This document shows, piece by piece, positions 36,398 to 59,527 of a stretch of DNA of 64,000 nucleotides. The translations under genes were made by a program, and so were the position numbers. Within the stretch, counting starts at the first letter, position 1. Every line of letters starts with the position of its first letter. Source of the DNA: a virus (taxonomy: Duplodnaviria; Heunggongvirae; Uroviricota; Caudoviricetes); IMG/VR virus record IMGVR_UViG_3300032167_005013. One strand, 5' to 3'. The notes beneath the pieces were generated by a model. That model did no database searches. It saw only the letters and a list, made by a program, of their open reading frames with translations, and had not been told where the DNA came from.

Positions 36398-36543
36398 GGT
36401 AGTGATGTTTAATTGATTACATCTTCATTTATCGCAAAGTCCGTGCCAAATTCTATCTATTAAGAAAGAATTTATCTTGTATCTTGGAGATAGTTTCCAC
36501 AGCACCCCAAATAAGGAGTGCTATGATTATAGGGTTATTCATA

Positions 36544-36867
36544 TTATTTTACTATACTATAAAGCCCGATTTTGTATTTCATTGTAATGATAACCTGTTT
36601 CAGTGCGTTTTCGATTTCTTTTTCATTTTTAAGAAAAAGCATATCCTTACCAAAGGTTTTGAAAAACGCATCTTGTATTTCTCCGTGCAGTCCGACAAGG
36701 CGGAAATAGTTATCCCTTATAGGGTATTCAAGTTTTGAACAATATATATTGGTAGAGAAAACCCTTACAAACTTTGGCGGGTCGTTTGGTTTGTCCTCTC
36801 TTGTTGCAAGCACTTCAAAGTTAGGAAAGTTTGAAAATCCTTTGTCGTAAGTAATGCGTGTTTCCAT
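36544..36867 (-). CDS. hypothetical protein
   Basis: sigma54-like box at 36903-36918 (minus strand). Confidence 0.65.
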   Translation of the reverse strand: METRITYDKGFSNFPNFEVLATREDKPNDPPKFVRVFSTNIYCSKLEYPIRDNYFRLVGLHGEIQDAFFKTFGKDMLFLKNEKEIENALKQVIITMKYKIGLYSIVK

Positions 36868-36938
36868 ATTCTTTGTTGTTAGTTGTTTACATCTTACTTT
36901 AATGCAAAGACCATGCCAAAGTGGATAGTTTTATATTA

Positions 36939-37280
36939 CTATCCACATATTTTGTTGGTTTGGTTTTCGCTGATAGGAGTTGCATAATCATCAGAGGTGG
37001 TGTAGTTGGTTCTGACCTCAGGAGTGCCCTCATAGTATTGTGTGATGTTATAGTCATTGACTATTTGAGTTATTTCGGTTTCCACCATATCAATACATTG
37101 AGTTGTATTCAAAAGGATATGCCTCCCAAAAATATCAATGATGTCAAGAAAGCCATTTGTATAGGCTTTTTCAAAAGGGTTATCGGTTTTAACGAATATA
37201 ACTCCGTTATTTACTTTTGTGATTTTCCACCCTTTGAAAATTGTTACCTTTGTTGTTGAAGTTGCCTTAATGAAAGCCAT
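36939..37280 (-). CDS. hypothetical protein
   Basis: sigma54-like box at 37317-37332 (minus strand). Confidence 0.65.
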   Translation of the reverse strand: MAFIKATSTTKVTIFKGWKITKVNNGVIFVKTDNPFEKAYTNGFLDIIDIFGRHILLNTTQCIDMVETEITQIVNDYNITQYYEGTPEVRTNYTTSDDYATPISENQTNKICG

Positions 37281-37546
37281 TGTGTTAGTTGTTTAATTGA
37301 TTACATCTTCATTTATTGCAAAGTCTGTGCCATAGATGTTATAATGAGAAAAAAATATATTATAATATAATAATATATGGTATAAAGATTTTTATATATT
37401 GTTATGGTTTGGCATAGATATTGCATAATGTAGGAATGTAGTTCTTTGAGAATAGAGTAAAAAAGTTTTTAATTTTCTATTAGAAAATTAAAGGTTTGGC
37501 ACGATATTCGCATATAGAATAGATGTAAACAACTAACAATAAAGAT

Positions 37547-38062
37547 ATGACAAACATTATTTCAGCACTTGCAAATGCAAAGGGATTTCAGTTCGTGGGA
37601 CTTACTTACGAAAATGAGGTAAAAATGAACAAGACCGGTAATCCGTATTACGGTAGAGTTACCAAGAGGGTCAGCGGTCAGATGTGTTTCAATGGAAACT
37701 ATGAAAATATGGTCAACAACCGCCTTACGAAAGAGGGTGTAGAGTTTGAGTTTGTTGCAGGCAGTCTCCCTTGGGGTCAGTGGGTCGAGGGTTGTGAGAA
37801 TAAAGTAATCGCACATAAGGGAGAGTTTTACATAAGACTTTATCCAACTCCGAACACAAAGATGAAAGTGACTTACTACCTTGATGGTGTGGAGTGTACT
37901 GACACTGACATGAAATATATCACTCCGTTTCTTCCTCAACGAAAGGAATCCGCAAAGCAGGAGAACGCAGGATTGGAGGGAGCAAAGCAGTTACACCCGC
38001 AGAACATTAAGGTCAGCAACATTAAGAAACTGACTATCGGTGGAGCGGAATACATAATGTAG
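37547..38062 (+). CDS. hypothetical phage protein (LPWGQW motif)
   Basis: 171-aa ORF; boxes at 37410 and 37497. Confidence 0.75.
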   Translation: MTNIISALANAKGFQFVGLTYENEVKMNKTGNPYYGRVTKRVSGQMCFNGNYENMVNNRLTKEGVEFEFVAGSLPWGQWVEGCENKVIAHKGEFYIRLYPTPNTKMKVTYYLDGVECTDTDMKYITPFLPQRKESAKQENAGLEGAKQLHPQNIKVSNIKKLTIGGAEYIM

Positions 38063-38183
38063 GTACTCAAAAGAGTATAGGGAGTTGAAAAATACTCCCT
38101 AACTTTTTAAGAGTTTTTAAAACATTGGCATACTTATTGTTATATATAAACATAAGTACATAACCGGATTAAAACCTATTGAC

Positions 38184-38516
38184 ATGAAAGAGACCCTTAC
38201 ATCAATCAGCAACATCAGCAAGAGGATAATGGAAAAGATGGGAGTTAACTCCCGAGCAACAAAAGCCTTTTGGCAAATGGGTAGTGGGGAAAAGGAGAAT
38301 GTAGTATTTTCGCTTATTGATTACAGCGATGAAGATGTTGAAAAGTATTGCCCGTCATTCATCAGCATTGACAATGAAACGCAGGTAATGACATTCTTCT
38401 ATGACGGCATTCCGTATTTCTCAAATAAATTAAGTCTTGTTGACCTCAAGAGGATACGAGCAGGCTTGCTGAAACTTGAACGAAATCGGCATAAGATTGA
38501 ACAGATATTTGACTAA
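38184..38516 (+). CDS. hypothetical protein
   Basis: Box at 38126. Confidence 0.65.
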   Translation: MKETLTSISNISKRIMEKMGVNSRATKAFWQMGSGEKENVVFSLIDYSDEDVEKYCPSFISIDNETQVMTFFYDGIPYFSNKLSLVDLKRIRAGLLKLERNRHKIEQIFD

Positions 38517-38622
38517 ATGAATGGAAGTACTCAAATGAGTACTTCTTTTTTTTTATATATGATATAAGTTTGGCATTGTTTTTGCATTACATAGAAATGT
38601 AATCAAATAATACAAAACAGAT

Positions 38623-38985
38623 ATGAAAAAACAGGACAAACCTACATCAGTCGGCATCATTGAAAGCAGGAATACACATATCCCCCACACGATTTTGCAG
38701 CAAATCAAATATCCAAACCTTGTAATCTTTTTTACTTGGGGTGCAAAGGGTTTTACAATGGGGCAAAGCAATGATGAACGCAAAGAGCCTTGTTTGATGT
38801 TTAAGGTCAGTGGCCGCAAATTTAAGGGATATGTTCATATCTTTTATGATTGGTCAGACTATTATAGGGTTGAATTTGTATCAACACATAGGAATCTGAA
38901 AAAGGTCGTTAATGAAGTCTATTTTGACGAGTTGCAGTCAGTAATTGATGAATATGTTGAAAAATGCGAAGATTATGCCTTTTAA
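38623..38985 (+). CDS. hypothetical phage protein
   Basis: Box at 38571. Confidence 0.7.
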   Translation: MKKQDKPTSVGIIESRNTHIPHTILQQIKYPNLVIFFTWGAKGFTMGQSNDERKEPCLMFKVSGRKFKGYVHIFYDWSDYYRVEFVSTHRNLKKVVNEVYFDELQSVIDEYVEKCEDYAF

Positions 38986-39041
38986 TGGCATAGTCTTTGC
39001 ATATAATAGAAATGTAATATTTCTATTAACTGAAAATTATT

Positions 39042-39296
39042 ATGGCAAAGAAAAAGAGAAAGGGTTTATATAAACTCAACAAAGAAGCCAAAGTGGGAGA
39101 AACAATAGAATGCCCTATCTGTCATACCAAGTTCACTAAAAGGCAGTATTCACAAGCCTTTTGCTCTACAAGGTGCAAGGATAGATTTTGGAACTCCAAG
39201 GGAGACCGACACCGATATGTGGACTATCCCGACAATGACTTTGGCGATAGGGAAATGGATGAAATGTTCGGGGTTGCCGAATATAATGTCGAATAG
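39042..39296 (+). CDS. small zinc-finger protein
   Basis: CPIC...FCSTRC; box at 38986. Confidence 0.65.
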   Translation: MAKKKRKGLYKLNKEAKVGETIECPICHTKFTKRQYSQAFCSTRCKDRFWNSKGDRHRYVDYPDNDFGDREMDEMFGVAEYNVE

Positions 39297-39919
39297 GTTG
39301 TTTATAAAAATCAAATGCCACAAAAATGTCCTATATTTTATAGATACAAGAGGTTTTGGGCATATCGTGGGTAATTTGTCTAATAAGATGGCTATATTCC
39401 CGATTTACCATTCTGTCTATAAACATCTGTATGAAGATGTCAATGTGGCACAGAAATTGCAATAATAAAATAGAAACCAATAAAAACAAAAAGATATGCT
39501 ACTAACGATTATCATCAGTGCAATGCTGACAACATTTCCAAAAGAGGAAACACCGAAAGCAATCCGTTTCAGCAACGATATGGTGCTTGTGGAGGAAACA
39601 ACATTACCAAAGCCGTTTGTAACCAACAAAAAGTAAAATGCTATGAACGGAGGAAATTGGGGATAATAAAAATAAATGATTATGGGAAAATCATTATCAA
39701 ATCGTAATTGGGAGAAAATTACCAACGAAGAAAGGGACAGGTATCTTAATGATGAAGAAACTTGGTTTGTGGAGGAGTTTGCGGAGGGAAAACTCTATAT
39801 GAACAATGTTGATGGTTATGTCGTGCTTGACCGAGTATTTGAAACATTGTGGTCGTGGATTTAGAGTTTGGCACGGAGTTTGCAATAAAATATCGTGAAA
39901 CCAAATAACTAAATGAGGT

Positions 39920-40255
39920 ATGGTAACAAAGGAATACATTGAAAAGTTGATTGCAAAGAACAATGCACAACTTAAAACCTATAAGAGCAACTTGGAGGAG
40001 AACTATCTTCATCATTTTGAGTGGCTTGCTGAAAGGATTTTTAAGTTGGAGTGGAAAAACAAGATATTGAATGATATTCTTGTGCTGTTCAATGATGCAA
40101 ATATAAAAGCCGATGATGCAGTTAAGAGGTTAAAAGACCGATTTAGGGATGACCTTATAACAAAAAGGCTTATGCAGTCATCATCAAATCCACTTGCAAA
40201 CCTATCAAGCCTTTGGATAAATGAGTGCAAGCAGGAAATGATTGCAGAACTCTGA
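39920..40255 (+). CDS. hypothetical protein
   Basis: Box at 39869. Confidence 0.65.
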   Translation: MVTKEYIEKLIAKNNAQLKTYKSNLEENYLHHFEWLAERIFKLEWKNKILNDILVLFNDANIKADDAVKRLKDRFRDDLITKRLMQSSSNPLANLSSLWINECKQEMIAEL

Positions 40256-40771
40256 CAAGTTTGGCACGGAACTTGCAATAAAATAAATCAAAAAGAAAGT
40301 ATAACCTTTTAACGGATGGAGGGTACACCAATGCACCGATAAGAGATTAAATTGAAAACTTGATTATTAGAAAATTTACGAAATAAACCAACCGAGATAT
40401 ATAGGTTTTAGAGGGTTAGCCGTTTTAGAGTATATCGCAATTTGTTCGTGATATGAACACAAGAGACCGACCATAAAGGGCATACGCAATTTATTATATT
40501 CTGGATTTTTGAAACTTAATTAGGAACCTTTTAATGCGCCCTGCCTATGGGAACAAGAGCATCACCAAGTTAGACATAGATTATTTTATTGATTGAGCAT
40601 TTTAATATAACAAGGGGTTTGTCATTGATATGTTAAGTTGGAGCGAAACCACCAAACCCCCCCAAAGAATTTAGGTTAGTTGTCTATATGTTGAGTTTTC
40701 CGTGTTATGTTGTGAAATATGGCACGGATTTTGTTATAAATGAAGATGTAAACAATTTAAAACAAGATAAC

Positions 40772-41242
40772 ATGAATAAGAATTTTGAAAATCTAACAAA
40801 GGATGAACTTCTAACACTCCGTAAGGACATTGTGTTAAATTCAATATTTATTCACGATTATGAGAATAGTTTTGGCTTTGATTCTCATAAGGTATCAGTT
40901 TTCTTTGATAGTTTTGTGGAATATATCTGCGAACTTGCTGAGGAAAATGGTGTAAAGGACTTTGAAAGGATACTTAAAGAATATGACACTATCGACAACC
41001 TTTGGTCTTGGTTTAATTGTTATGACGATTTATCGTGGATGACATTTGCCAATGGCTTTAGAATTGGGGATAAAGTTAAGTGGGAGGACTCGGGACTTGA
41101 TGACTTTGATTTCAACGAAAGAGAAAGTCAGAAAGAAAGAGTGTATAAAATTATTGGAGTATTGAACGATGAAATGTTCCTTATTTCGGATGAATATGGA
41201 GAATCCGAGGTGTTTGCTGATGAACTGATAAAAGTGGCATAG
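40772..41242 (+). CDS. hypothetical acidic protein
   Basis: Box at 40720; stop codon lies inside the next promoter box. Confidence 0.7.
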   Translation: MNKNFENLTKDELLTLRKDIVLNSIFIHDYENSFGFDSHKVSVFFDSFVEYICELAEENGVKDFERILKEYDTIDNLWSWFNCYDDLSWMTFANGFRIGDKVKWEDSGLDDFDFNERESQKERVYKIIGVLNDEMFLISDEYGESEVFADELIKVA

Positions 41243-41281
41243 TCTTTGCATATAATAGAAATGAACTTAAATAGCAAAAAT

Positions 41282-41770
41282 ATGAATATTCAAGACATTC
41301 AGAAAACACTTTCCGATGATTTAATTTCTTGCGATGTATATGAGTGGGAAAATGGTGTTTATGTCGAAATTGAATATGGAGATTGGAAACATGACCACCT
41401 GCGATGTGATTACCTTATGAAAACAATGGGATATAGTCTTATAGAAGAAAAGGTAACAAAACAGGACGGTAGCGATTGTTATGGTTCTATTCATATCTAC
41501 GAGAAAGGTGGGTTAATGAAACTGAATGACATTCGTAATGTGTTAAGGCACGGAAAACTCTATTGGAAATTCAGTTGGGTTAAGGATTATGGCAACGGCA
41601 CAAAGTTAATTGAATATAAGTCTTTCAAGTCCGCAAGAGGAAAAAAGCATATCAGTATCTTGCAGATTGGATATAGGGTCAACGATTTTGGTGTAATATC
41701 TTGCGGTTATACCAAAGATGAGGAGCATAAAGAAATAATTTTTATATCTGACCTTGAGGGTTTGGCATAG
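41282..41770 (+). CDS. hypothetical protein
   Basis: Box at 41235. Confidence 0.65.
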   Translation: MNIQDIQKTLSDDLISCDVYEWENGVYVEIEYGDWKHDHLRCDYLMKTMGYSLIEEKVTKQDGSDCYGSIHIYEKGGLMKLNDIRNVLRHGKLYWKFSWVKDYGNGTKLIEYKSFKSARGKKHISILQIGYRVNDFGVISCGYTKDEEHKEIIFISDLEGLA

Positions 41771-41813
41771 TCTTTGCAATAAGATAAGATGTAAATCAAT
41801 AAAAACATTTGTT

Positions 41814-42005
41814 ATGACACATACGAGAACAACCGACAATGGTATCCGTTTCAAGACAACGACTGAGTTTGAAACATGGTGGAGTGAATATGATATGGCA
41901 GTTGCTGAAACGCACCTTGCCAACTATGATAAAATTATTGTCGATGAATATGGCTGTCCTATTGACAATGAGTATGACCTTGCTGAGATAGAGGAATATC
42001 TTTAA
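41814..42005 (+). CDS. small acidic protein
   Basis: Box at 41763. Confidence 0.6.
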   Translation: MTHTRTTDNGIRFKTTTEFETWWSEYDMAVAETHLANYDKIIVDEYGCPIDNEYDLAEIEEYL

Positions 42006-42166
42006 AGTAAATATCCCTGCCCTGAGAAGCATATGCAGAGGTAGAATAAGCGGTTGACCGTAATTAAGTCCGTGTAAAGTAACTCAAAGGAGCGGAGGGC
42101 AGGGTTTTTTAATACTTTGGCATAGTCTTTGCAGTATAGTAAAGTACAATCAAATACCGACACGAT

Positions 42167-42700
42167 ATGGAGACAACAAAAAACACAATGGCAAAAATGC
42201 AGACCACCAAACTTGGCAAAGAGGTTTGGTTGCTTGGTAAGGATAATGATGATATGAATCTTTATCTTGTTAAGGCATCATGGGATTGTGGTTGGTATTG
42301 GGGCTTTGGATATGTGCAGTCATACAAGAGGGGTGACATTGAAACGCACACACACATTGATAGCAGTTTCATGGGGGTGCAGAAAGTGTGGGACATTGAC
42401 AAAAATAAGTTTGTTGAGACCGACTATATCCACAACATCTACAATGCACCTATGTTTGCTGAAACGACATTCTCAGAAGAAGAGGGTTGGCAGTTGACAG
42501 AATTGTTCAAGCAGTTCTACAAGTTTAAAGAGGTTGCAGGAATTCTCCATAGAGGTGGAGCGGGAATCACCACTCTGTGCGACTATCTCAAGATTGACTA
42601 TCCCGAAAGAGAGGCACGATACAAGGAAATCAATGAGGTTATCCTCCCGCAGATATTCGAGAAGATATATTCAATTCTTACCCCGGATAAAAATGAATAA
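42167..42700 (+). CDS. hypothetical phage protein (SWDCGWYWGFG motif)
   Basis: Box at 42118. Confidence 0.7.
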   Translation: METTKNTMAKMQTTKLGKEVWLLGKDNDDMNLYLVKASWDCGWYWGFGYVQSYKRGDIETHTHIDSSFMGVQKVWDIDKNKFVETDYIHNIYNAPMFAETTFSEEEGWQLTELFKQFYKFKEVAGILHRGGAGITTLCDYLKIDYPEREARYKEINEVILPQIFEKIYSILTPDKNE

Positions 42701-42784
42701 GGTACTCGAAAGAGTACCTTTCAGAAACGACTTTGGCATATTTATTGCATATATAACAACTGAATAACTAAAACAAACATCACT

Positions 42785-43723
42785 ATGGCAAGCAAAAACA
42801 CAAATCTTCATTCAGCAAAGAAAGCGAAAAATGATGAATTCTATACTCAACTTACTGACATTGAGAAAGAAATGAGACATTATAAGGATTTCTTTAGAGG
42901 AAAGGTTGTGTATTGCAACTGCGATGATGCAAGGGAATCCAATTTCTTCAAGTATTTCTCCCTTAACTTTGAACATCTTGGACTGAAGAAACTCATTACC
43001 ACAGGTTATAAGGAAAGTGGAAAGGGTGTTGTCCTTATCTATGAGGGAGACAAGAATGGCAATAGAATCGTTGAAGATTCAGAGATTATCGTAAGAGAAC
43101 TTGAGGGCAACGGAGACTTCCGTTCAGCAGAGTGTATCGAGTTCCTTAAAGAATCTGATGTTGTTGTTACAAATCCGCCATTCAGTCTATTCCGTGAGTA
43201 TGTTGCTCAACTTATGGAGTATGGAAAGAAATTCATTATTATAGGTAATGGCAATGCTGTAACCTATAAAGAGATTTTCCCTTATATCAAGAACAACGAA
43301 CTTTGGTTGGGGGCAAGTAAAGGTATTGGTGGTAAGTTTACATTTATTGTTCCCGAAAGTTATGAGGGTAAATTTGTTTCTGTTGAAAATGGTGTTAGGA
43401 TTGGACAAGTGAATAATGCTTGTTGGTTTACTAACATTCCCCATACAAAAAGAAATACTCCACTTGATTTGTATCGTAGGTACTCAAAAGAGGACTATCC
43501 TAAGTACGATAATTATAATGCGATTGATAGTACGACATCTGAAATTCCTATGGACTATGACGGAGTTATTGGTGTTCCAATCACATTCCTTGACAAATAT
43601 TGCCCTACTCAGTTTGAAATAATTGGGCTTGATAGATATGTTGAGGATAATCCTCGTTATGGACATCGTTTCCATATAAATGGGAAAGAAACTTATGCAA
43701 GAATTTTAATTCGCAGAAGATAA
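42785..43723 (+). CDS. adenine-specific DNA methyltransferase, EcoRI-methylase family
   Basis: KNDEFYT, VVYCNCDD, GDFRS.EC, VTNPPFSLFREY, GVPITFLDK. Confidence 0.9.
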   Translation: MASKNTNLHSAKKAKNDEFYTQLTDIEKEMRHYKDFFRGKVVYCNCDDARESNFFKYFSLNFEHLGLKKLITTGYKESGKGVVLIYEGDKNGNRIVEDSEIIVRELEGNGDFRSAECIEFLKESDVVVTNPPFSLFREYVAQLMEYGKKFIIIGNGNAVTYKEIFPYIKNNELWLGASKGIGGKFTFIVPESYEGKFVSVENGVRIGQVNNACWFTNIPHTKRNTPLDLYRRYSKEDYPKYDNYNAIDSTTSEIPMDYDGVIGVPITFLDKYCPTQFEIIGLDRYVEDNPRYGHRFHINGKETYARILIRRR

Positions 43724-43908
43724 TTTTTTCCTAATAAGAATTCTAAAATACGGACATTTTCCATTGATAGATAAATCCTTATCATCGTCTCCTTTACGAA
43801 ATTTGATTATTTCAAACTGAGTATATTAGACACTTAAGAATCTTTTAAGGTTTAATGGGTTTGGCATGGACTTTGCATCATGTTGTAATGTAACCAATCA
43901 ACATTGAT

Positions 43909-44211
43909 ATGAACAAACAAATCGAATACTATTCAGTTTGCAGTTGTGGGGCAATCACATTGTTTTTCACTGACGGCACATCAAATTCCTGCAAGAGAAA
44001 AAACCTTAAGAAGTTTGGAATAAGCCTTAAGGGTATAAAGAAACAAAAGGAGAATACTTGGTGTTGCAATCATTGCGTAAATCACTATGGCATAGATATA
44101 TGTTCATGTGGCAGTGGAGAGGAGTATGAGAAGTGTTGTGGTACTCCAATGGAAACACTTGGTGTTCAGTACGATGGTTTTAGTCAAATCCTTAAAAACT
44201 TTGCACGATGA
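43909..44211 (+). CDS. Cys-rich small protein (SEC-C-like)
   Basis: CNHC..CSCGSGEEYEKCC; box at 43862. Confidence 0.6.
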   Translation: MNKQIEYYSVCSCGAITLFFTDGTSNSCKRKNLKKFGISLKGIKKQKENTWCCNHCVNHYGIDICSCGSGEEYEKCCGTPMETLGVQYDGFSQILKNFAR

Positions 44212-44615
44212 TTAGTGATAAAATCGAAGTTATCAATACATTAAGAAACAGACTTGCAATCGCAGAAGATGGGTTGAAAGAAGAAATTTTTTCACTCATT
44301 GACAAGGTTGTTAAGATGCAGGTTATTGAGAGGGTTGGCAAGTTTATGTGCATTATGAAATTCAGCGAGATAAGTGGTAAGATATGGGCGGCTGAATACT
44401 ATATATGGGAGCATAATGCCGAAATGCTTAAAAAGAAATTAAAAGATAAGAGTGGCATTGAGTGCTATGACTACATAATGAATTTGCCAAAATCCAAAAC
44501 GAGGATGGGTAATTATGAAATCAAATACTATGTGTCGAATTGGCTTGGTAGGTACGAACTGAAATATCCTGTGAATAATGAATACATTGACAAACTTATT
44601 TCTGAACTGAAATAG
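44208..44615 (+). CDS. hypothetical protein
   Basis: 135-aa ORF coupled to the previous gene. Confidence 0.6.
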   Translation: MISDKIEVINTLRNRLAIAEDGLKEEIFSLIDKVVKMQVIERVGKFMCIMKFSEISGKIWAAEYYIWEHNAEMLKKKLKDKSGIECYDYIMNLPKSKTRMGNYEIKYYVSNWLGRYELKYPVNNEYIDKLISELK

Positions 44616-44668
44616 GTTTGGCACAGACTTTGCAGTAAGATAGAACTGAAACATAAAAGGAAATAACC

Positions 44669-45772
44669 ATGAAAATCGAACTAAAACAGATTCCTATTTC
44701 GGCAATCGCACTTGACTATAAGGACAACAACGATGATGGTGTTGTCGGCTATGGTGGAAACCTCAACATCCGTCCGCCTTATCAGAGAGAGTTTGTATAT
44801 AAGGACAAACAGAGGGATGCAGTCATTGACACGATTATGCGTGGATTCCCTCTCAATGTAATGTATTGGGCAAAGAACGAGGATGGGACATATGAAGTGC
44901 TTGACGGGCAACAGAGGACAATTTCATTCTGTCAGTATGTGAATGGAGATTTCTCAATTAACGAAAGGTATTTCGGTAATCTTACTGACTATGAGCAGGA
45001 GCAGATTATGAACTATAAGGTAATGGTTTATATCTGTGAGGGCAACGACAAGGAACGACTTGATTGGTTTAGGACAATCAATATCGCAGGGGAGAAACTG
45101 ACTGACCAAGAACTCCTTAACATCAATTACACGGGTGCTTGGTTATCACACGCAAAGCGACTTTTCTCTAAAACGGCTTGCAATGCTGAGAAGATTGGCA
45201 AGGACTATATCAAGGGAACTGCAATTAGGCAGGAAATTCTTGAACTTGCATTATCTTGGATTTCCGGTGGAAAGGATAATATCGCAGGATATATGGCTGA
45301 ACATCAGCACGATTCAAACGCCAACGAACTTTGGTTGCATTTCAGCAAGGTAATCGAATGGGTAAAATGCACATTCCCGATTTACCGAAAAGAAATGAAA
45401 GGTCTTGAATGGGGCAGGCTTTATGCTGAGTATGGCAATGAAAGTTATGACATTGAGGAAATGGAGAGGGAGATAAATCGGCTTATGGCAGATGAAGATG
45501 TTACCGCAAAGAAAGGTGTATATGAATATGTGCTATCAAGAGGAGAGAAAGAGAAATGTTTATCTGTAAGAGTATTTTCAGAAAAGGACAAGCGAACGGC
45601 TTATGAACAACAGAAAGGTGTTTGTCCAATTTGCGGAGAACATTTCGAGTTTGAAAATATGCAGGGCGACCACATTGTAGAATGGTCAGCAGGTGGAAGA
45701 ACGACATTAAGTAACTTGCAGATGGTTTGTCATGGTTGCCATAAGAAACTGACTAATAAGATTTATTCGTAG
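44669..45772 (+). CDS. DUF262 (ParB-like/GmrSD-N) plus HNH endonuclease
   Basis: RPPYQREFVY, LDGQQR, FRTIN..G; CPICG..GDHI..GGRT..NLQMVCHGCH. Confidence 0.88.
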   Translation: MKIELKQIPISAIALDYKDNNDDGVVGYGGNLNIRPPYQREFVYKDKQRDAVIDTIMRGFPLNVMYWAKNEDGTYEVLDGQQRTISFCQYVNGDFSINERYFGNLTDYEQEQIMNYKVMVYICEGNDKERLDWFRTINIAGEKLTDQELLNINYTGAWLSHAKRLFSKTACNAEKIGKDYIKGTAIRQEILELALSWISGGKDNIAGYMAEHQHDSNANELWLHFSKVIEWVKCTFPIYRKEMKGLEWGRLYAEYGNESYDIEEMEREINRLMADEDVTAKKGVYEYVLSRGEKEKCLSVRVFSEKDKRTAYEQQKGVCPICGEHFEFENMQGDHIVEWSAGGRTTLSNLQMVCHGCHKKLTNKIYS

Positions 45773-49640: not shown

Positions 49641-49680
49641 TCTTTGCAATAAGATAAGCATAACCAAAAACAATGGAGAT

Positions 49681-50810: not shown

Positions 50811-51119
50811 ATGACATACAATACTATGGAAAAGAAAATGTTTGCACTTACTTATTGTTATGAGGGAGTGGATGATAATGTCCCTTATGCTTGTACCATC
50901 GCAGTATCAGAAGATATTGAAAAACTCCGTGCTGAAATGGAGAAATGTATTGAAGAAGATACAAGAGAGCCTAATGAGGAAGATGGAGAAGATGAATGGC
51001 AGGATGATATGAATTATCAAGTTTTTAGAAAATATGGCGATGATGTGGTGCTCCAACACAAAAAGAACATCAATCTTTACACACATTATAAAATTCATGA
51101 AGTTTCCGTCTTGGAATAA
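50811..51119 (+). CDS. hypothetical acidic protein
   Basis: Box at 50771. Confidence 0.6.
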   Translation: MTYNTMEKKMFALTYCYEGVDDNVPYACTIAVSEDIEKLRAEMEKCIEEDTREPNEEDGEDEWQDDMNYQVFRKYGDDVVLQHKKNINLYTHYKIHEVSVLE

Positions 51120-51178
51120 TAAGTTTGGCATGGTATTTGCAGTGTAGTTAAATTGTAAACCAATTAAAACAAGAAACT

Positions 51179-51439
51179 ATGTTGAGGATTAACGAGCCAC
51201 ACATGACAATCGGTGTTCAAGGTTGGGCAAAGGTTGATGGGAAGTGGAAGTGCATTGAGAAGTTTACTGAAAGGAAATTCGGTAACTATGGACTTACGGC
51301 TTTAAGGACAAAACTCATATTGAGAAATTCAAAGGTTGAGTTTACCAAGATATATTTGAAAACTCCAATCAGTGTCCCATTTTTGCAGTGGTATGACAAG
51401 AACGGAAAAGAAACAAAACATCCGCTTATGGATGATTAA
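51179..51439 (+). CDS. hypothetical basic protein
   Basis: Box at 51126. Confidence 0.6.
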   Translation: MLRINEPHMTIGVQGWAKVDGKWKCIEKFTERKFGNYGLTALRTKLILRNSKVEFTKIYLKTPISVPFLQWYDKNGKETKHPLMDD

Positions 51440-51922
51440 AAGTAATATTGTGATGTGGTAGGGAATTGCACCCTATACTCCAACTAATGCACGATATTAT
51501 TTATTATTGATAGTGAGTAGGAGTCCTATTTACCCCCTTTGGATATGTTGGATAAAGCCAATGCGGGCAATAGGCAAACAGCAAACCGAATTTGTTGATA
51601 AGAGACAGACTTTTGTTTATAGGGTTGTTGCCGAATTTAATTGACAAATCAAAAGGATGGGATATTTGATGGTCTGCCATGACAATTCATCATAGCACCA
51701 ATCTCCAAGTGGTTAGTCCACTACGGCTATGTACTTATAATCGTTTCGGGATTTTACGAGGTACACCGCTTGGCAGTCCATCACTTATTTTAGAAAGTTA
51801 TTCATCATTCTGTGTTTAATTGGTTGGGAGTGTAAGTTTTCTACGGATTTGCACTCCTTTTTTATTACTTTGGCATAGTAATTGCAATAACATAGAATAG
51901 AAATCAATTTAAAAACACAGAT

Positions 51923-52429
51923 ATGGCAAAAAAGAAAAGAACTGCATTCCAAGAGGAAACCATTAAGATGTTTCTCGAAAGTGCATCTTGGAATGATTAC
52001 CCAAAGGAGTATTATAAGAATGTGACCATTGAAAGATTTTGGACTGACTATATACCCGATGGAAGTACCACAATCTACACAACTCCCGACCATATTGACC
52101 ACGATGAATGTGGTAATTTTTATAAGTGGGGAACTACCGAAGAACTATGCGATGATTTCAACGCAGTTCGTGATATGCTTTGGCAGAGTGGTATTCTTGA
52201 AGAAGTCTATGATGAACATCAAGAACTTGATTATGACCAAACACCCACGCCGGAGGATTTCGTTTATGAATGTTGTCAGCATTGCGAACATGAAAACGAG
52301 TTCATAATGGAAATGAGGTATCAGCGATGCAAGAAGTGTGGCAGACTTATCAAGCCTTGTGCGGTTTGTGACCATGATAAGGTAAATTGTGAAAATTGCC
52401 CGCTTGGAAAAGACCTTAAAAACCAATAA
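51923..52429 (+). CDS. hypothetical protein with C-terminal zinc ribbon
   Basis: CQHC..CKKC..PCAVC..CENCP; box at 51871. Confidence 0.65.
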   Translation: MAKKKRTAFQEETIKMFLESASWNDYPKEYYKNVTIERFWTDYIPDGSTTIYTTPDHIDHDECGNFYKWGTTEELCDDFNAVRDMLWQSGILEEVYDEHQELDYDQTPTPEDFVYECCQHCEHENEFIMEMRYQRCKKCGRLIKPCAVCDHDKVNCENCPLGKDLKNQ

Positions 52430-52772: not shown

Positions 52773-52993
52773 ACTATGCCAAAATATAGAATTCCCGTTC
52801 GTAATGTTGAATATGGATTTATTGATGTAGTTGCAGACAATATTGAAGATGCAAAAGAAAAAGTAGATTGTTTTGACGGAGATTACTATGTAAACAAAAA
52901 TTTTGTTGATATAGTTGCTGAAATTGAAACACTTGAAGATTAGTTTGGTACGAACTTTGCAATATATAGGAATGTAAACAAATACAGAATACT

Positions 52994-53320
52994 ATGGAAA
53001 AGATTTATAAGCATCTTGGTTATTATTCCAATCTTGAAGATATTCAAAAACTTTATGATAAGACTGATGAATATGTCGTTGAGGAAATGTTACAGGGGAG
53101 GGGTTGTTTCAATGTAGCCGACTATGAAGAGCATACCGAACATTATCTTAAATGTTGCGATGCAGGATTCGTTGATATCAATAACACGAGATATGCAGTG
53201 GTAAGAGATTACGATTGGGACATATCGGACTTGGACGACCTTGACGCAGATAGTGATGAAGATAACGACCTTTACGACCGCAGCCCTTCATATATTGATG
53301 TGTATTTAGTAAAGGAATAA
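52994..53320 (+). CDS. acidic protein, paralog of 52434-52772
   Basis: KIYKHLGYYSNL...YIDVY; box at 52946. Confidence 0.7.
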   Translation: MEKIYKHLGYYSNLEDIQKLYDKTDEYVVEEMLQGRGCFNVADYEEHTEHYLKCCDAGFVDINNTRYAVVRDYDWDISDLDDLDADSDEDNDLYDRSPSYIDVYLVKE

Positions 53321-53368
53321 TAGTTTGGCACGGACTTTGCAATATAATTGAGTTATAAAACAAAAACA

Positions 53369-53938
53369 ATGGAAACATTAAAAAATGACTTTCTCCTTTA
53401 TATCTTGGAGTACGCATTTTGCGATGATACTCAAATTTCTATTATCAATGAGTATCTTGACAATCATGGCGAAAGCAGGATTTATCAGAATGATTCCGAT
53501 GGTCTTGAAGATATGCTTGAATGTACAGAGAAATCCGAGATTGTTCGTGCAATATCATTTGGTCAGTATTCTTGGACTGATAGTTATGTCAAATTCAATG
53601 GCTATGGAAACATAGAATCGTTTAACGCCTTGTGGGGTTCTGATAGCGTATGGATTGAGGATATGATTGCTTGGTTGACTGAGGGGGATAATTCGCCTCG
53701 CCTTGACCTTGTATATACAATACTTGATGCAGACGAAGTTGCTGACATTCAGCTCCATTTTGTTGAAGAACTTATGGAAATTCTCGACAATGAGGATGAA
53801 AGTAATATTAATAAATGGATTGAAGAAAAATCAATAGATTCAGAACTCATTTGCAGAGAGAATTGGAACGACTTGATTGCCAATTACAAGGAATGGAAAA
53901 AAGTTGATAATTGGCTAAAAGAGAATGGCAATGAGTAA
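53369..53938 (+). CDS. acidic phage protein (FNGYGN motif)
   Basis: Box at 53326. Confidence 0.65.
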   Translation: METLKNDFLLYILEYAFCDDTQISIINEYLDNHGESRIYQNDSDGLEDMLECTEKSEIVRAISFGQYSWTDSYVKFNGYGNIESFNALWGSDSVWIEDMIAWLTEGDNSPRLDLVYTILDADEVADIQLHFVEELMEILDNEDESNINKWIEEKSIDSELICRENWNDLIANYKEWKKVDNWLKENGNE

Positions 53939-54086: not shown

Positions 54087-54428
54087 TTCATTATTTCCTT
54101 TATTAATTATTTATTTTTTACTAATTAAACACTATTTTCCTTATATAAGGCACCACTTGTTTTGTAAGTGGATAACAGTTATTTAAACTAATATCGGACG
54201 GAGGTCCAATCACCCCGTATCGAAACCATCCTTACGGGCAGGCATCAGTCAACATGCCAATCGGCACCTTTCTAACAAGGTAGTGCCAAGTGCCCTCCTT
54301 TAGGGGGCGTAGTTGACAGTGTTTTATATTGGTTGGAATTGGGGAGATTGCTAAAATTTCCCCTTTTCTTTTTAACACTTTGGCACAGATGTTGCAGTAT
54401 GTAGGAATGTAATATAAACAATTTTGAT

Positions 54429-54644
54429 ATGGAAAAGATTGCTAAGGATTTGGCGTTTTGCCCTATGCTGAGGGTGGTAATCCCAAAGGGTACAACAAAC
54501 GGATGGTCTGAAGAAGAATTTGCTGAACTGACCGCAAGAGAAAAATTGCAGAGTTGGACAAAATCTGAAATTATTGATTGGGTTATGGAAAACCTTGAAG
54601 ATATTTTCGAAAGCCCGGAAACATTCGATAAGGATTATGACTAA
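54429..54644 (+). CDS. small acidic protein
   Basis: Box at 54381. Confidence 0.6.
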   Translation: MEKIAKDLAFCPMLRVVIPKGTTNGWSEEEFAELTAREKLQSWTKSEIIDWVMENLEDIFESPETFDKDYD

Positions 54645-55010: not shown

Positions 55011-55082
55011 TTTAAGAAAAAACTGACTTTGGCACGGAACTTGCAATAAGATAGGATGTAAACCAATAAAAACACAGAGAAT

Positions 55083-55570
55083 ATGAGCAATTTTAGACAG
55101 ACACTTTTCGAGAGAGGATGTTACACAGAAGAAGATTACAAGGACTATTGCCTTGATAATGACTTGGAGTACGATGAAACCGATGATAGTAAATACTATG
55201 ATTGGGTTGCAAGACAAGAGGAATGGGATTTTGACGATATGCTTGACAACTGCAAGTATTCAAAATACAAGAACTATTCCGTACTTGTTGAGGTAGTGTG
55301 GGAACATGGAGAGGCAGGTTTGAGCATGACCAAGCGGTTTTCGACAGTTTCGAGGATGCGATTTATGCTTGCATTGGCAGGTCGTGTGAGATTGACAAGG
55401 TTGAGAGAATTGGCAATAGGATTGAGGTTGTTGCAATCCACCACGATGGAAGAAACTACCATACACTTTATTTCCTTACTCCTTGCGGAGAATATAGATT
55501 TGAAAAGAATGGTCATGTTTCTCCGAGAAACAGAGAAAACATTGTACCACTTGACAAGTATGTATGGTAA
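55083..55570 (+). pseudogene. frameshifted gene (or sequencing error) at ~55291
   Basis: Adding one G in GAGGTAGT joins ...SVLVE to GSVGTWRGRFE... of ORF 55298-55570. Confidence 0.6.
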
Positions 55571-55622
55571 TTAACAAAGGTACTCGAAAGAGTACCTATA
55601 TAAAAACAATCAAATAAAAATC

Positions 55623-55976: not shown

Positions 55977-56033
55977 ACCACTTTGGCACGAAAGTTGCTA
56001 TAATAATAATTGTAAACCAAATAAAAGAAGCTT

Positions 56034-56813
56034 ATGACAAATGAATTTATTACCATGATTTTGGATAGTGCGAGGAACATTGCACATGACAGAAATGGAT
56101 TCTATGAGACACTTAAAAAGAATCTTGAGGGAATGTACGATGATTTCGTTGACGAAGCAAAGAAAAAACAGAAAGAATATGTATATAATCGTATCCTTTC
56201 ATACGATTATCTTCCAACAACCACACTCCTCGACACTTATGTTCTTGGTATTATCGAAACCAAATACGATTTGTTTCAAGGCGTTGATTGGAATGTAATG
56301 GAAGTCCTGTCAGAAATTACAGAGAACGCAACAAACTACTTCGTGGGTAAGTTCGGCCTTAATGAAGTTGAAAAGGCGGTATTCTATCAGTGGCTTGGCA
56401 ATGCAGATGATTATACCAACGAATATACCATCATTGATAATCTTGGATTCCCTCATGGGGACAAGTCGCATCCCGACCTTTATAGGATGTATAAGGAATG
56501 TTTCGGTAAGGATTTCAAGGTAGAGGGAGATGATGATGTAACAGATGATTTCGTTATCACCAATTACCCAAACAGACGCACTGAACTTACCGCAACAATC
56601 AATACCAACTTCGCAATGCTTTTTGCAGTCCTCAACACACATACATATAATGGGGACATGGGAGTTACCATTGAAAGTTGTTCAAGTCCATTGGCTTTGA
56701 AAGAACTTGGATTCTCCGATAGTGAATGTGCGACAATCGCAAAACTTAAGATTGGAGAAAGTTGTATGTCGGAAGACTATGGCAATGGAGTGGTTGTCGT
56801 AAGAATGGCATAA
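56034..56813 (+). CDS. hypothetical protein
   Basis: Box at 55984. Confidence 0.7.
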   Translation: MTNEFITMILDSARNIAHDRNGFYETLKKNLEGMYDDFVDEAKKKQKEYVYNRILSYDYLPTTTLLDTYVLGIIETKYDLFQGVDWNVMEVLSEITENATNYFVGKFGLNEVEKAVFYQWLGNADDYTNEYTIIDNLGFPHGDKSHPDLYRMYKECFGKDFKVEGDDDVTDDFVITNYPNRRTELTATINTNFAMLFAVLNTHTYNGDMGVTIESCSSPLALKELGFSDSECATIAKLKIGESCMSEDYGNGVVVVRMA

Positions 56814-56943
56814 AATAAGGGAAATAAGTACTCAAATGAGTACTTATCCCTTGACAATAAATCAATTCATTGATATATTTATATAGGTAAATTTGGTAAT
56901 TAAAATACTAATTCCTATATTTGCAATATAAATATAACATATT

Positions 56944-57438
56944 ATGACGCAAGAAAATTGCATAGTATTAACCGCTTATAATAAAGGATATCGAGTTGAT
57001 GAATTTGGTAATGTTTGGTTTAATGGTAGGCAACGCAAACTAACGGCAGGAGGTTCCAATCCAAATAGAAAATACTACAAATTTTGCATAAGATTTGATA
57101 ATGGTAAGCCTAAAAATGTAAAAGTTCATAAACTTCAGGCTTATCAAAAATATGGTGAAAAAATGTTTGAAGAAGGTATTGTTGTTCGACATTTGAATGA
57201 TGACCCTCTTGACAATTCTTATGAAAATATAGCAATTGGAACAATATCAGATAATATGTTTGATATGCCCGAAGAAAAACGGAAAAAACTTGCTAAGCAC
57301 GCAACATCATTTCTAATAAAATATGATGCTGAAAAAATAAAAGAATTTTATGAAGAATGCCGTTCATATAAAAAGACTATGGAATATTTTGGTATTCCAT
57401 CACGAGGAACGCTTCATCATATAATTCATAATAGATAA
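56944..57438 (+). CDS. HNH homing endonuclease
   Basis: KVHKL..VVRHLNDDPLDNSYENI..SDN; directly upstream of tRNA-Glu. Confidence 0.8.
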   Translation: MTQENCIVLTAYNKGYRVDEFGNVWFNGRQRKLTAGGSNPNRKYYKFCIRFDNGKPKNVKVHKLQAYQKYGEKMFEEGIVVRHLNDDPLDNSYENIAIGTISDNMFDMPEEKRKKLAKHATSFLIKYDAEKIKEFYEECRSYKKTMEYFGIPSRGTLHHIIHNR

Positions 57439-57442
57439 AAGC

Positions 57443-57517
57443 GGTCGGTTGGTGTAGAAGTTAGCACGATGCCCTTTCACGGCATAGACAGCGGAGCGTT
57501 ACCGCTACCGACTACCA
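57443..57517 (+). tRNA. tRNA-Glu(TTC)
   Basis: Cloverleaf GGTCGGT/ACCGACT; anticodon arm ATGCC-CTTTCAC-GGCAT; encoded CCA; atypical T-loop. Confidence 0.85.
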
Positions 57518-57660
57518 AATAGAGATTCATCTTACATCTGTAATAAGAAGCCCGTGAGGGTGCATAGTGTTTTTAATTTGGTTTTAATCGTGGGTCGGGG
57601 TTATTTTCTCCGACCTTTTTCTTTATTATTTCCCCCTTTATTGTTATTTTAATAAAAAAC

Positions 57661-57936
57661 ATGAAGAAGAGATTTGTAAATGGAACTGATGTTTATGTTC
57701 ACTCCTATAAAGATTATACTGCGGTATTATATTTGAATGAGGAGAATATCATCAATTTTGCTATCGTAAATCCGGAAAACATAACGATTGCAACGGGAGA
57801 TATATTTGATGATAAACACCCTAAAGGCTTGCCAAATACTTCCTATTATAGGAAGAAAATTCAGATGGAACTTGAAGAACTTCTTGAAAATCAAGTTTTC
57901 AATCTTGAAAAAGAAATTACAAATGAGGGAGAATAA
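57661..57936 (+). CDS. hypothetical protein
   Basis: 91-aa ORF. Confidence 0.55.
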   Translation: MKKRFVNGTDVYVHSYKDYTAVLYLNEENIINFAIVNPENITIATGDIFDDKHPKGLPNTSYYRKKIQMELEELLENQVFNLEKEITNEGE

Positions 57937-58011
57937 ATTTCCCTCATTTTTTATTTGTGGCACGGACTTTGCAGTATGGTAGAATTGTAAACCAATATAA
58001 AAACGAATAAT

Positions 58012-58296
58012 ATGGAAAAATCTAAAATGACTTGGGAAGAATACAAGAACTTCAAAGAAGATGGGGACACATCTTACAATGAGTTTGATAAATGCCATGA
58101 TAAAGGCAATGACATTCTGTCAGATATTAGAGAACTCCTTGAAATGGCACAGAATTACAATGTAAATGAAAGTGCTATTGATTGCCTTGATGTGGCACTC
58201 GAAGAAATGCAGAAATTCTGTAATAATATGATGGATTGCAAATGTAATCATTTTGAGGCTTACAAGAAAAGACTTGGCACGATTGTTGAAGTATAA
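58012..58296 (+). CDS. hypothetical protein
   Basis: Box at 57958. Confidence 0.6.
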   Translation: MEKSKMTWEEYKNFKEDGDTSYNEFDKCHDKGNDILSDIRELLEMAQNYNVNESAIDCLDVALEEMQKFCNNMMDCKCNHFEAYKKRLGTIVEV

Positions 58297-58328
58297 TCGA
58301 ATTGTAGAAACCAATTAAAAACAAATAT

Positions 58329-58727
58329 ATGAAACATAAGATTTTATCAGTCTATAATGACTATTACGAAATCAAAGAATTCCTTTTCAAGTACGACTTC
58401 ATATCAGAGGAACAATTCAATGATGATGAATATGACCTATTGGTATGGTTGGAAGGAGATTGTGATAGGATGGATTTTGATGGTAACGAAATCTTTTTTT
58501 CCCATTTCCATTCCGATTATGTATGGGATGGTTGTCAGGTCGTTATCTGTACTGCTGATGGTCGTGATGAACTTGACGAAATCCTTGAATTTTATGAGGG
58601 TGAGAGTTGGGTTATGGTCGATGATGATATAGACATTGATGCGTTTCTTGAAAGCGATGAAGATAAGGTTTTGTATCGTGGTGGGGTAGGACCTGTCTAT
58701 ACGGTATATTGTCGTAAAACCGAATAA
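58329..58727 (+). CDS. highly acidic protein
   Basis: Degenerate box at 58275. Confidence 0.65.
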   Translation: MKHKILSVYNDYYEIKEFLFKYDFISEEQFNDDEYDLLVWLEGDCDRMDFDGNEIFFSHFHSDYVWDGCQVVICTADGRDELDEILEFYEGESWVMVDDDIDIDAFLESDEDKVLYRGGVGPVYTVYCRKTE

Positions 58728-58784
58728 GTTTGGCACGGAACTTGCAGTATAAGAAAATTGTAAACTAATAAAAACATTTCAACT

Positions 58785-59468
58785 ATGTATCTTAAATATC
58801 AAGCGAAAGCACTTTACAGATTGATTGGTAATCGTGTCATTTCTTTTGACCATAAGTCTTATGATGATGCTGAGGATATACCATGTATCATTCACGATGG
58901 CAGAAGAATAAATGTATATTCAGTACAATTTATACACAATGGAGCTGCACTTTGTTGTGAACTTGACGATAAGATTTTGTGCGAGGTAACAATCAAGTTG
59001 GTTAATAATGATTGTGAGATTAGTGATGTTGAATTTGATAGGATTCTCAATATCAAATGTCTTGACCAACTTTTCCACGATATGTACTATGAGACAGATG
59101 AAAGTGGGGATATTGGGGATTATGAACTTGATTTTCTCGAACTTTATCCGGAAAACCTTGAACAATATGAGGGTCTTTCCAAGAACGAAATGCTTGCCGA
59201 CATTGCAAACACAATGAGAAACAATGCCACATCATCTTGGGCGTTTCCTGCCAATACATTCGTGCACCTTAACCTTTGGAATACTCCTACCCTAACAGAC
59301 CTTAGATTCCTCTTCATTAGAGAGTCATCAAGAGTGGATGGAGAAACAATAATTGAACTCTATTCTATTGACGATGAAAGGGATGATGAACAATATACAG
59401 ATAATCTTAAGGATTTTTCTGTTGAGGAAATAAGAACAATATATGCAATTTTCAAGAAGAATTCATAA
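58785..59468 (+). CDS. hypothetical acidic protein
   Basis: Box at 58731. Confidence 0.65.
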   Translation: MYLKYQAKALYRLIGNRVISFDHKSYDDAEDIPCIIHDGRRINVYSVQFIHNGAALCCELDDKILCEVTIKLVNNDCEISDVEFDRILNIKCLDQLFHDMYYETDESGDIGDYELDFLELYPENLEQYEGLSKNEMLADIANTMRNNATSSWAFPANTFVHLNLWNTPTLTDLRFLFIRESSRVDGETIIELYSIDDERDDEQYTDNLKDFSVEEIRTIYAIFKKNS

Positions 59469-59527
59469 GTTTGGCATAGTCCTTGCAATATAGGACTATG
59501 TTTTTAACCAATTAAAAAACCAATAAC

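Follow-up and report, generated by a model that had tools for sequence, protein, structure and literature searches.

Which polymerase holoenzyme would read a phage region in which nearly every small gene carries its own copy of one and the same upstream motif? The question is raised by a 64,000-nt stretch of a Caudoviricetes genome (IMG/VR record IMGVR_UViG_3300032167_005013; the whole stretch is referred to as the window), in which an array of small genes is punctuated by the motif TGGCAY-N5-TTGCA. A first-pass annotation, made from the letters of the window, had read these copies as sigma-54-type (-24/-12) promoters and had proposed that the phage runs a whole regulon on sigma-54, adding that no phage strategy of this kind was known at such scale. 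Textbook phage programmes rely on sigma-70-type promoters, on phage sigma factors or on phage polymerases, and sigma-54 is, to our knowledge, the sole bacterial sigma factor unable to start transcription alone, the complex that its polymerase forms staying closed until it is opened by an ATPase. Our searches of the literature on sigma-54 with phage promoters, jumbo phages or early genes likewise found no phage regulon built on sigma-54. In this work, we present comparative and motif-based evidence from which we consider it probable that these sites are real promoters of the sigma-54 (-24/-12) class, read by the RpoN polymerase of the host, and that host sigma-54 probably serves the phage for a part of its programme.

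Exact matches to TGGCAY-N5-TTGCA number 31 in the window, all of them inside 36,903-59,487, against an expectation of 0.08 and a maximum of 1 in 100 dinucleotide shuffles. This amounts to 1.3 exact sites per kb in the 23-kb array, and a slightly looser pattern, TGGCAY-N5-TTGCW, has only 25 matches in a 3.1-Mb Prevotella genome. All 40 positions listed in the first-pass annotation were recovered when up to two mismatches were allowed: 31 fit the pattern exactly, 6 differ from it at one position and 3 at two. In the alignment of these 40 sites, T1, G2, G3, A5, T12 and G14 are invariant, and C4 (38/40), T13 (39/40), C15 (36/40) and A16 (35/40) nearly so; position 6 holds a pyrimidine (C or T) in every site, position 7 a purine (A or G) in 39 and position 8 a G in 32, and T occupies two positions 5' of the motif in 35 and 31 sites, respectively, with free variation at the other spacer positions. 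The GG-N10-G(C) spacing is constant throughout, and the resulting profile, TGGCAYRG-N3-TTGCA, corresponds base for base to the sigma-54 -24/-12 consensus YTGGCACGR-N3-TTGCW.

The placement of the sites with respect to genes is equally regular. Site and gene orientation agree in 40 of 40 cases, with 37 plus-strand sites leading to plus-strand open reading frames (ORFs) and 3 minus-strand sites to minus-strand ORFs. When an additional site outside the array (1905) is included, an ATG opening an ORF of at least 40 aa lies within 60 nt of the motif end at 39 of 41 sites, at a median distance of 35 nt (range 10-42, the 10-nt value at site 41235 being probably due to a wrong start call). A common A-rich leader, (A)TGTAAACCAATTAAAACA, starts 13-14 nt 3' of the C in GC, about where a sigma-54 start site would be expected (~12 nt after the GC). 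The number of sites and their distribution of roughly one per gene, their constant orientation and spacing, their identity with the RpoN consensus and the leader near the predicted start, all proposed in the first-pass annotation, were therefore reproduced. Three sites depart from the general layout: 37410 is a second site, 121 nt upstream, for the gene that follows 37497; 40262 is followed by no ORF that reaches 40 aa, and the stretch behind it (40289-40700) folds no better than its shuffles (z +0.8) and matched no Rfam family; and the -24 half of 40720 lies inside the 3' arm of a terminator-like hairpin. The array comprises ~45 small genes separated by gaps of only ~55 nt, which are mostly ORFans to which PHROGs and Pfam assign almost no functions. 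A T4-type late promoter hidden directly 3' of TTGCA was considered and rejected, as only T18 and A19 are conserved there.

The same promoter type is found in the presumptive hosts. The host of this phage is probably a gut or rumen member of the Bacteroidota (probably Bacteroidaceae or Prevotella-like); the window contains 11 canonical sigma-A promoters of this phylum, which point to a Bacteroidota host. Start-site mapping in Flavobacterium psychrophilum located a -24/-12 motif before groES-groEL, lon, dnaK, grpE-dnaJ, htpG and clpB (PMC9723704), and a comparative survey found sigma-54-type promoters likewise enriched at Bacteroidota chaperone and protease genes (PMC12316311). In a Bacteroidaceae sample, which represents the likely host family, RpoN (Sigma54_DBD) was found in 31 of 31 genomes, and 12 of 13 host-family genomes carry 1-5 true enhancer-binding proteins (EBPs). 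Furthermore, a TTTGGCAC-N5-T[CAG]G[CT] site occurs ~40-105 nt before the ATG in 23 of 24 groES upstream regions, taken from 29 loci. A weight matrix was then built from these 23 sites only, with no phage sequence in it, a check that follows the matrix scan suggested in the first-pass annotation: all 40 listed phage sites fell within the top 50 of ~128,000 window positions on both strands, 36 of the top 40 positions were listed sites, and the highest score in the window belonged to the unlisted site 1905. The Bacteroidota chaperone promoters (SM4 of F. psychrophilum, PMC9723704; PMC12316311) share with the phage sites the blocks TGGCAC(G)-N4/5-TTGC at the same spacing, the flanking TTT and a predicted start ~12 nt after the GC. 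The two groups differ in number, with ~40 copies in 23 kb of phage compared with a few tens per bacterial genome, in the common leader that follows each phage site, and in the -12 half, which in the phage (TTGCA) is nearer to the universal consensus than is the T[CAG]G[CT] found before host groES. They also differ upstream: TGTCA/TGACA repeats, plausibly the activator binding sites of host groES, stand just upstream of the host sites, whereas the phage sites have neither room for upstream activator sites nor enrichment of them.

To place the array in its genome, we extended the sequence by walking along metagenome contigs. Exact copies of window proteins were found on many herbivore-gut contigs, some of 0.2-1 Mb, and ~64 kb beyond the window were added, giving ~128 kb of this phage in all; no transcription factor turned up in the added sequence. 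By its gene content it is a T4-like jumbo phage, since T4-type morphogenesis genes (Gp23 capsid, Portal_T4, prohead protease S77 and gp13) are located upstream of the window on the extended contigs; ThyX, a Macro domain protein, an NMN transporter, Thg1, NAPRTase and a Dam-like methylase are encoded downstream.

The arrangement recurs in related phages. Relatives of the array protein encoded at 58785-59468 display 58-93% identity, and the contigs carrying its 72% and 64% relatives contain 30 sites within 20.7 kb and 11 within 7 kb, respectively, every one of them on the strand of the genes (plus); 28 of the 30 and 11 of the 11 lie 27-51 nt before an ATG and are followed by the same leader, and both the N5 spacer letters and the gene content differ from those of the window. 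Comparison of homologue order between the window and two relatives (L214 and L216) revealed cassette turnover, with inserted, missing and relocated cassettes among neighbours that are 30-94% identical. In addition, when IMG/VR was scanned for the motif joined to the leader and sites were then counted over whole records, five large contigs (110-302 kb) were identified, each with one same-strand cluster of 7-20 exact sites (8-25 by the looser pattern) and an ATG usually 30-50 nt after the site; a loose scan for the motif gave mostly single chance matches among the matches listed, and became informative once these were counted per locus. A T4-type head-region structural protein is common to the phage and 3 of the 5 contigs, at 40-48% identity. 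Because the same layout occurs in diverged relatives and in five jumbo contigs, the promoter-array layout is, on comparative grounds, a trait of a clade and not of a single genome. As a separate observation, head-to-head quasi-palindromic pairs (TGGCAC-N5-TTGCA, 3 nt, TGCAA-N5-GTGCCA) are clustered in short regions of unrelated IMG/VR contigs (L139, L160, L085, L176 and L088); this is another use of the motif, and the two members of such a pair cannot both be productive promoters.

Within the phage, the array sites are distinct from two other promoter types. Bacteroidota sigma-A promoters (TTTG-N17-21-TAnnTTTG), which had been noticed elsewhere in the window and of which 11 were found, stand mostly before larger replication and metabolism genes; the pattern with a 17-23-nt gap coincides with none of the listed array sites, and the sole sigma-A promoter inside the array, at 56892, stands in front of an HNH gene that is inserted there. 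Pairs of sigma-70-like hexamers are no commoner than in shuffles (81 and 77.5, respectively). Among the mostly structural genes of the ~26 kb upstream of the window, two sigma-54-type sites were found, neither of them just before a called gene start, and the structural genes are preceded, at 25-35 nt from their ATG, by a motif of CTATTTAT type. In the form AAAAACTATTTAT or ATATTTAT, this motif precedes the genes of a tail-fibre-like 1248-aa protein and of the prohead protease, the pre-Gp23 gene and others (L415:1040-11460), and it probably represents the late promoter class of a T4-like phage. Downstream of the window, further sigma-54-type sites precede non-structural genes, such as Thg1. Sigma-70-family proteins are encoded by 4 of the 5 related jumbo contigs, and in two relatives the phage sigma-70-family gene is located 43-81 nt behind a sigma-54-type site at the array end (L411:1230 G043; L413:1271 G046); no such gene was found in the ~128 kb of the present phage. 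This position in the two relatives fits a cascade in which host machinery would read the sigma-54-type class ahead of the action of factors made by the phage. For the array, the suggested early or host-takeover timing is only indirectly supported, through the different motif of the structural genes and the sigma gene that relatives keep behind a sigma-54-type site. A near-identical module, TTTGTTAGTTTGGCAYAATATTTGTATATTTGCA, was observed at 17899-17935, 29287-29323, 31456-31492 and L416:17930-17972; it consists of a sigma-A -33/-7 promoter with a TGGCAY-N5-TTGT box inside its spacer, this box has high scores with the host groES matrix (19.1 and 16.8), and the module may be a dual promoter with nearly one start point for both classes.

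Sigma-54 requires an AAA+ activator, and we searched for both in the phage. The first-pass annotation had seen neither rpoN nor a GAFTGA-bearing activator in the window and had recommended a wider domain search. The six-frame pattern search for GAFTGA and the profile searches for RpoN and EBPs were indeed negative in the window; profiles derived from host proteins gave no true match in the ~128 kb of phage and in the arrays of two relatives; and family searches of the five related jumbo contigs (32-82% complete) gave no RpoN and no true EBP. The only PF00158 matches were weak cross-matches of generic AAA+ proteins, the best of them at 41-43 bits in ClpB-sized frames of 850-888 aa. The AAA+ proteins in and near the window were inspected through Pfam scans and comparison with solved structures, and each was rejected as a hidden activator: the product of 8812-9918 is a ClpX without zinc domain (E value 2e-109), that of 15921-17144 is a classical-clade AAA protein, and two AAA+ ORFs upstream of the window are the halves of ClpB, all of them lacking the GAFTGA loop. 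A paired TGACA/TGTCA at 36006 was likewise discarded as an enhancer, as it corresponds to a terminator hairpin. The ClpX gene lies behind a sigma-A promoter, and the protein lacks the zinc domain at its N-terminus; the ClpB gene just upstream of the window (L082:4968-9209) is split into halves of 627 aa (N-terminal) and 391 aa (C-terminal), parted by an inserted endonuclease-like ORF of 378 aa. In hosts, the ClpB and ClpX families are members of the sigma-54-type regulon.

With the integration of these findings, the assignment of the array sites to sigma-54-type promoters appears well supported, and the proposal of a sigma-54 regulon draws support from the consensus, the geometry, the relatives, the host-derived matrix and the universal presence of RpoN in the likely host family. 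Each site would drive one small accessory gene of the T4-like jumbo phage, which would thereby copy the promoter type of the Bacteroidota chaperone and protein-quality-control regulon; the class would serve non-structural, fast-evolving genes, beside the sigma-A (-33/-7) promoters and the late motif. The promoter-leader unit, sometimes together with a GTACTC-N4-GAGTAC hairpin, might also act as a junction for gain, loss and movement of cassettes. Several observations weigh against this explanation. An AAA+ activator is absent from the window, from the ~128 kb of phage and from the five related contigs. TGTCA/TGACA shows no enrichment upstream of the phage sites (1.6 copies per kb, compared with 3.0 for the region), and only 4 paired copies exist in the 64 kb. 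Moreover, the preceding gene usually ends a few nt before the motif, and a local enhancer would find no space there. The -12 half frequently reads TTGT instead of TTGC in some relatives, a relaxation also present in the host groES sites. The host is uncultured and was deduced from promoter type and a phage-like scaffold binned with a Prevotella genome, and the RpoN dependence of the host motif is itself drawn from motif identity and start-site maps. As for the activator, host EBPs could act in trans: a host EBP might work with no nearby binding site, and it would perhaps be that of the chaperone regulon, responding to the protein-folding stress of infection; other options would be a few distant enhancers, or a phage factor in which no similarity to known factors can be detected. 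In a bolder form, which we regard as unlikely, the 40 or more sigma-54 promoters would be fired without enhancers through a phage factor that either frees the host sigma-54 polymerase from its activator or turns on the activator of the host chaperone regulon, and the latter switch could be thrown by the zinc-less ClpX and the ClpB of the phage removing an inhibitor.

The missing activator also invites explanations in which RpoN has no part or a modified one. Host core polymerase might be directed to the array by a phage specificity factor unlike RpoN, or by a sigma-54 altered by the phage to be independent of EBPs, in which case the phage and not a host activator would set the timing of the array. 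T4-type phages do reprogramme host polymerase with AsiA/MotA and gp55/gp33, and such a factor would agree with the lack of both an activator gene and enhancer sites, with the ORFan nature of the array genes and many of their neighbours, and with the fact that the sequence analysed is at most half of the genome. However, the match to host sites spans the flanking TTT, TGGCAC and the trailing G/A, on which an unrelated factor would have to converge exactly; the two blocks, only 5 nt apart, lie much too close together for the -35/-10 elements of a sigma-70-family reader, which is thereby excluded; and in two relatives the phage sigma gene itself stands behind a sigma-54-type site, all of which makes this explanation decidedly unlikely. 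Appropriation of sigma-A in the style of T4 middle promoters, with a phage activator bound to TGGCAY and host sigma-A to TTTGCA, would suit a T4-like phage. TTTGCA is common to the array sites and 8 of the 11 sigma-A promoters of the window, TTTG forms the end of TAnnTTTG, the -7 element of Bacteroidota, and TGGCAY lies in the spacer of three sigma-A promoters (17899, 29287 and 31456). Nevertheless, the array sites lack both the TA of the -7 box and a -33 TTTG at 17-23 nt, relatives lose the fourth T (ATTGTA, GTTGCT) and keep only TTG[CT], and the upstream block is the same as the -24 element of host sigma-54 sites; we therefore judge it very unlikely.

Two further possibilities accept the motif and deny, or set aside, its use as a promoter. 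The sites might bind sigma-54 holoenzyme unproductively, so that parked closed complexes block or insulate transcription, soak up polymerase or mark the DNA. Such complexes are known to be stable without an activator (PMC4591121), no activator was found here, and the head-to-head pairs of other viral contigs cannot both fire; but single gene-oriented sites ~35 nt before an ATG, followed by a conserved leader, have the geometry of promoters, and forty roadblocks along the path of transcription would hamper the phage's own expression, which renders this reading highly improbable. Alternatively, the unit could be mainly a recombination junction, or a signal for RNA processing or translation within a polycistron, with an incidental likeness to sigma-54 promoters. 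Cassettes are indeed inserted, lost and moved among relatives, the leader is conserved and A-rich, and most cassettes have no intervening terminator. The conservation of the sigma-54 contact bases around a free N5 spacer and the recovery of the sites by a host-derived matrix would then go unexplained, and a junction role is in any case compatible with promoter function, as it is in T4-type phages; we hold this last alternative to be extremely improbable.

The comparison with known systems points to promoter-early/stem-loop (PeSL) cassettes, which populate the hyperplastic regions of T4-type phages (PMC2839356, PMC4122927). As in PeSLs, the phage is T4-like (Gp23, Portal_T4, prohead protease), every small ORFan tends to come with a promoter of its own, several promoters stand directly behind a conserved hairpin, and whole cassettes have been gained, lost or moved between relatives, a gene order from which PeSL-like recombination at the array repeats may be deduced. 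Unlike PeSLs, which use sigma-70 early promoters, the phage sites are of sigma-54 type, and no more than 5 of 40 array junctions have the hairpin. This hairpin is the 16-bp palindrome GTACTC-N4-GAGTAC, with 10 copies that lie only within window 38527-63854, 5 of them 4-28 nt before a sigma-54-type site and others after gene ends; judging from these positions, it is likely a hairpin terminator or a cassette-border signal, and the same hairpin-then-site arrangement is seen in relatives. Terminator-like hairpins in general are enriched in the array (27, compared with 10.7 in shuffles), ~7 of them are on the plus strand, and most cassettes have no terminator between them. T4 middle promoters (a MotA box plus the sigma-70 -10 element, with AsiA) resemble the array in being a box-defined class before non-structural genes; they differ in that the phage box is the sigma-54 -24 element, with no sigma-A -7 box, and no MotA or AsiA homologue was seen in the phage, although no search was aimed at them. 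Finally, FlgR of Helicobacter pylori and CtcC of Chlamydia are EBPs that work without a DNA-binding domain or an enhancer. They exemplify sigma-54 activation from solution with no upstream site, as the phage layout would require, although no such protein was identified for the phage or the host, the domain content of the host-family EBPs not having been analysed.

If host RpoN reads the array, a clade of abundant gut and rumen jumbo phages would rely on the route of the host chaperone regulon, and these phages would need a way to activate dozens of enhancer-less promoters together. Should firing be enhancer-free and mediated by a phage factor, it would represent a new mode of sigma-54 control and a "heat-shock mimicry" takeover in a clade of T4-like jumbo phages. 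The array would offer a handle on the control of the Bacteroidota sigma-54 stress regulon and on gene timing in the phages of this phylum, the motif would serve as a cheap marker for Bacteroidota hosts and for phage accessory (ORFan) regions, and the compact 50-nt promoter-leader unit could become a genetic part for Bacteroidota.

Table 1. Coordinates of the sigma-54-type sites and associated features in the window; exact sites match TGGCAY-N5-TTGCA, and mismatches are counted against this pattern.
Feature	Position	Strand	Associated gene or remark
Whole array	36433-59487		leftward unit of 3 cassettes and rightward unit of 37 sites
Likely terminator of the leftward three-cassette unit	36003-36022	-	hairpin GGACTGACA-N3-TGTCAGTCC plus T-run
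Site TGGCACGGACTTTGCG, 1 mismatch	36433-36448	-	ATG 35 nt downstream, gene 36053-36397
Exact site	36903-36918	-	ATG 35 nt downstream, gene 36544-36867
Exact site	37317-37332	-	ATG 36 nt downstream, gene 36939-37280
Switch point of array	37333-37409		AT-rich 77-bp spacer between outward-facing sites 37317 (-) and 37410 (+)
Exact site	37410-37425	+	first of tandem pair, before gene 37547-38062
Site with TTCGCA at -12 half, 1 mismatch	37497-37512	+	ATG +34 nt, gene 37547-38062
Degenerate site, -12 half TTGTT	38126-38141	+	ATG +42 nt, gene 38184-38516
Exact site	38571-38586	+	gene 38623-38985; hairpin and T-run upstream at 38523-38546
Exact site	38986-39001	+	gene 39042-39296
Exact site	39446-39461	+	small ORF 39496-39636
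Exact site	39869-39884	+	gene 39920-40255
Exact site	40262-40277	+	followed by ~400 nt (40278-40700) with no ORF of at least 40 aa
Degenerate site, -12 half TTGTT	40720-40735	+	gene 40772-41242; -24 half is 3' arm of hairpin 40699-40728
Exact site	41235-41250	+	gene ending 41770
Exact site	41763-41778	+	gene 41814-42005
Exact site	42118-42133	+	gene 42167-42700
Exact site	42734-42749	+	gene 42785-43723, EcoRI-family adenine methyltransferase
Exact site	43862-43877	+	genes 43909-44211 and overlapping 44208-44615 (latter without own site)
Exact site	44619-44634	+	gene 44669-45772, GmrSD_N (DUF262) plus HNH nuclease
Exact site	45838-45853	+	gene 45881-46213
Exact site	46185-46200	+	gene 46234-46557
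Exact site	46569-46584	+	gene 46621-47100
Exact site	47127-47142	+	gene 47182-47511; GTACTC-N4-GAGTAC hairpin 5 nt upstream
Exact site	47518-47533	+	gene 47570-47899
Degenerate site, -12 half TTGTT	48137-48152	+	gene 48191-48364; hairpin 4 nt upstream, terminator-like hairpin 48075-48104 before
Exact site	48546-48561	+	gene 48599-48916
Exact site	49110-49125	+	gene 49161-49640
Exact site	49633-49648	+	gene 49681-50157
Site starting TGGTAT, 1 mismatch	50183-50198	+	gene 50239-50748
Exact site	50771-50786	+	gene 50811-51119; hairpin 4 nt upstream
Exact site	51126-51141	+	gene 51179-51439
Exact site	51871-51886	+	gene 51923-52429; terminator-like hairpin 51826-51858 upstream
Site starting TGGTAC, 1 mismatch	52946-52961	+	gene 52994-53320
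Exact site	53326-53341	+	gene 53369-53938
Exact site	54381-54396	+	gene 54429-54644; terminator-like hairpin 54341-54363 upstream
Exact site	55030-55045	+	gene 55083-55574
Site ending TTGCT, 1 mismatch, fits TTGCW consensus	55984-55999	+	gene 56034-56813
Exact site	57958-57973	+	gene 58012-58296
Site ending TTGAA, 1 mismatch	58275-58290	+	gene 58329-58727
Exact site	58731-58746	+	gene 58785-59468
Exact site	59472-59487	+	gene 59528-60088, then packed genes to ~61.9 kb without further sites
Extra site outside array, TGGCACGGTTTTTGTA	1905-1920	+	ATG 35 nt downstream, gene 1956-2576
Sigma-A promoters	7000, 8783, 15861, 17899, 27644, 28650, 29287, 31456, 56892, 61858, 63516		

The window encodes, besides the array, a helicase, NrdD, DNA methyltransferases, a ParB-like protein and a nucleotidyltransferase, and it is unmatched among ~50,700 deposited phage genomes, save for one 680-bp stretch of 66% identity. 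The best IMG/VR relatives of the ParB-like protein are 56% identical, and the phages of 233-483 kb that carry such relatives have neither the motif array nor RpoN. The closest match of NrdD in a bacterial collection (76%) is located on a 117-kb phage-like scaffold binned with Prevotella sp. CAG:1092, in which no exact TGGCAY-N5-TTGCA site was found. Prevotella sp. CAG:1092 has a second ParB-like copy (54% to window 24114-25949), with a TGGCACATGGTTTGCA site ~70 nt 5' of its start (G011:C125:9704-9719).

Several features of the region are related to mobile elements and tRNA genes. Inside the array, the sigma-A promoter at 56892, an HNH_3 endonuclease gene (56944-57438) and a tRNA-Glu(TTC) gene (57443-57517) are grouped in a segment, 56892-57517, that resembles an inserted mobile unit; a second tRNA gene (Met, CAT) lies at 63863-63937. 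One metagenome contig terminates near window position 16.2 kb. An IS1595-type transposase in the 13800-14750 region of the window has 230 aa in one sample and 315 aa in another, and a pair formed by an IS607-like resolvase and TnpB is present downstream of the window (L416:5061-7075).

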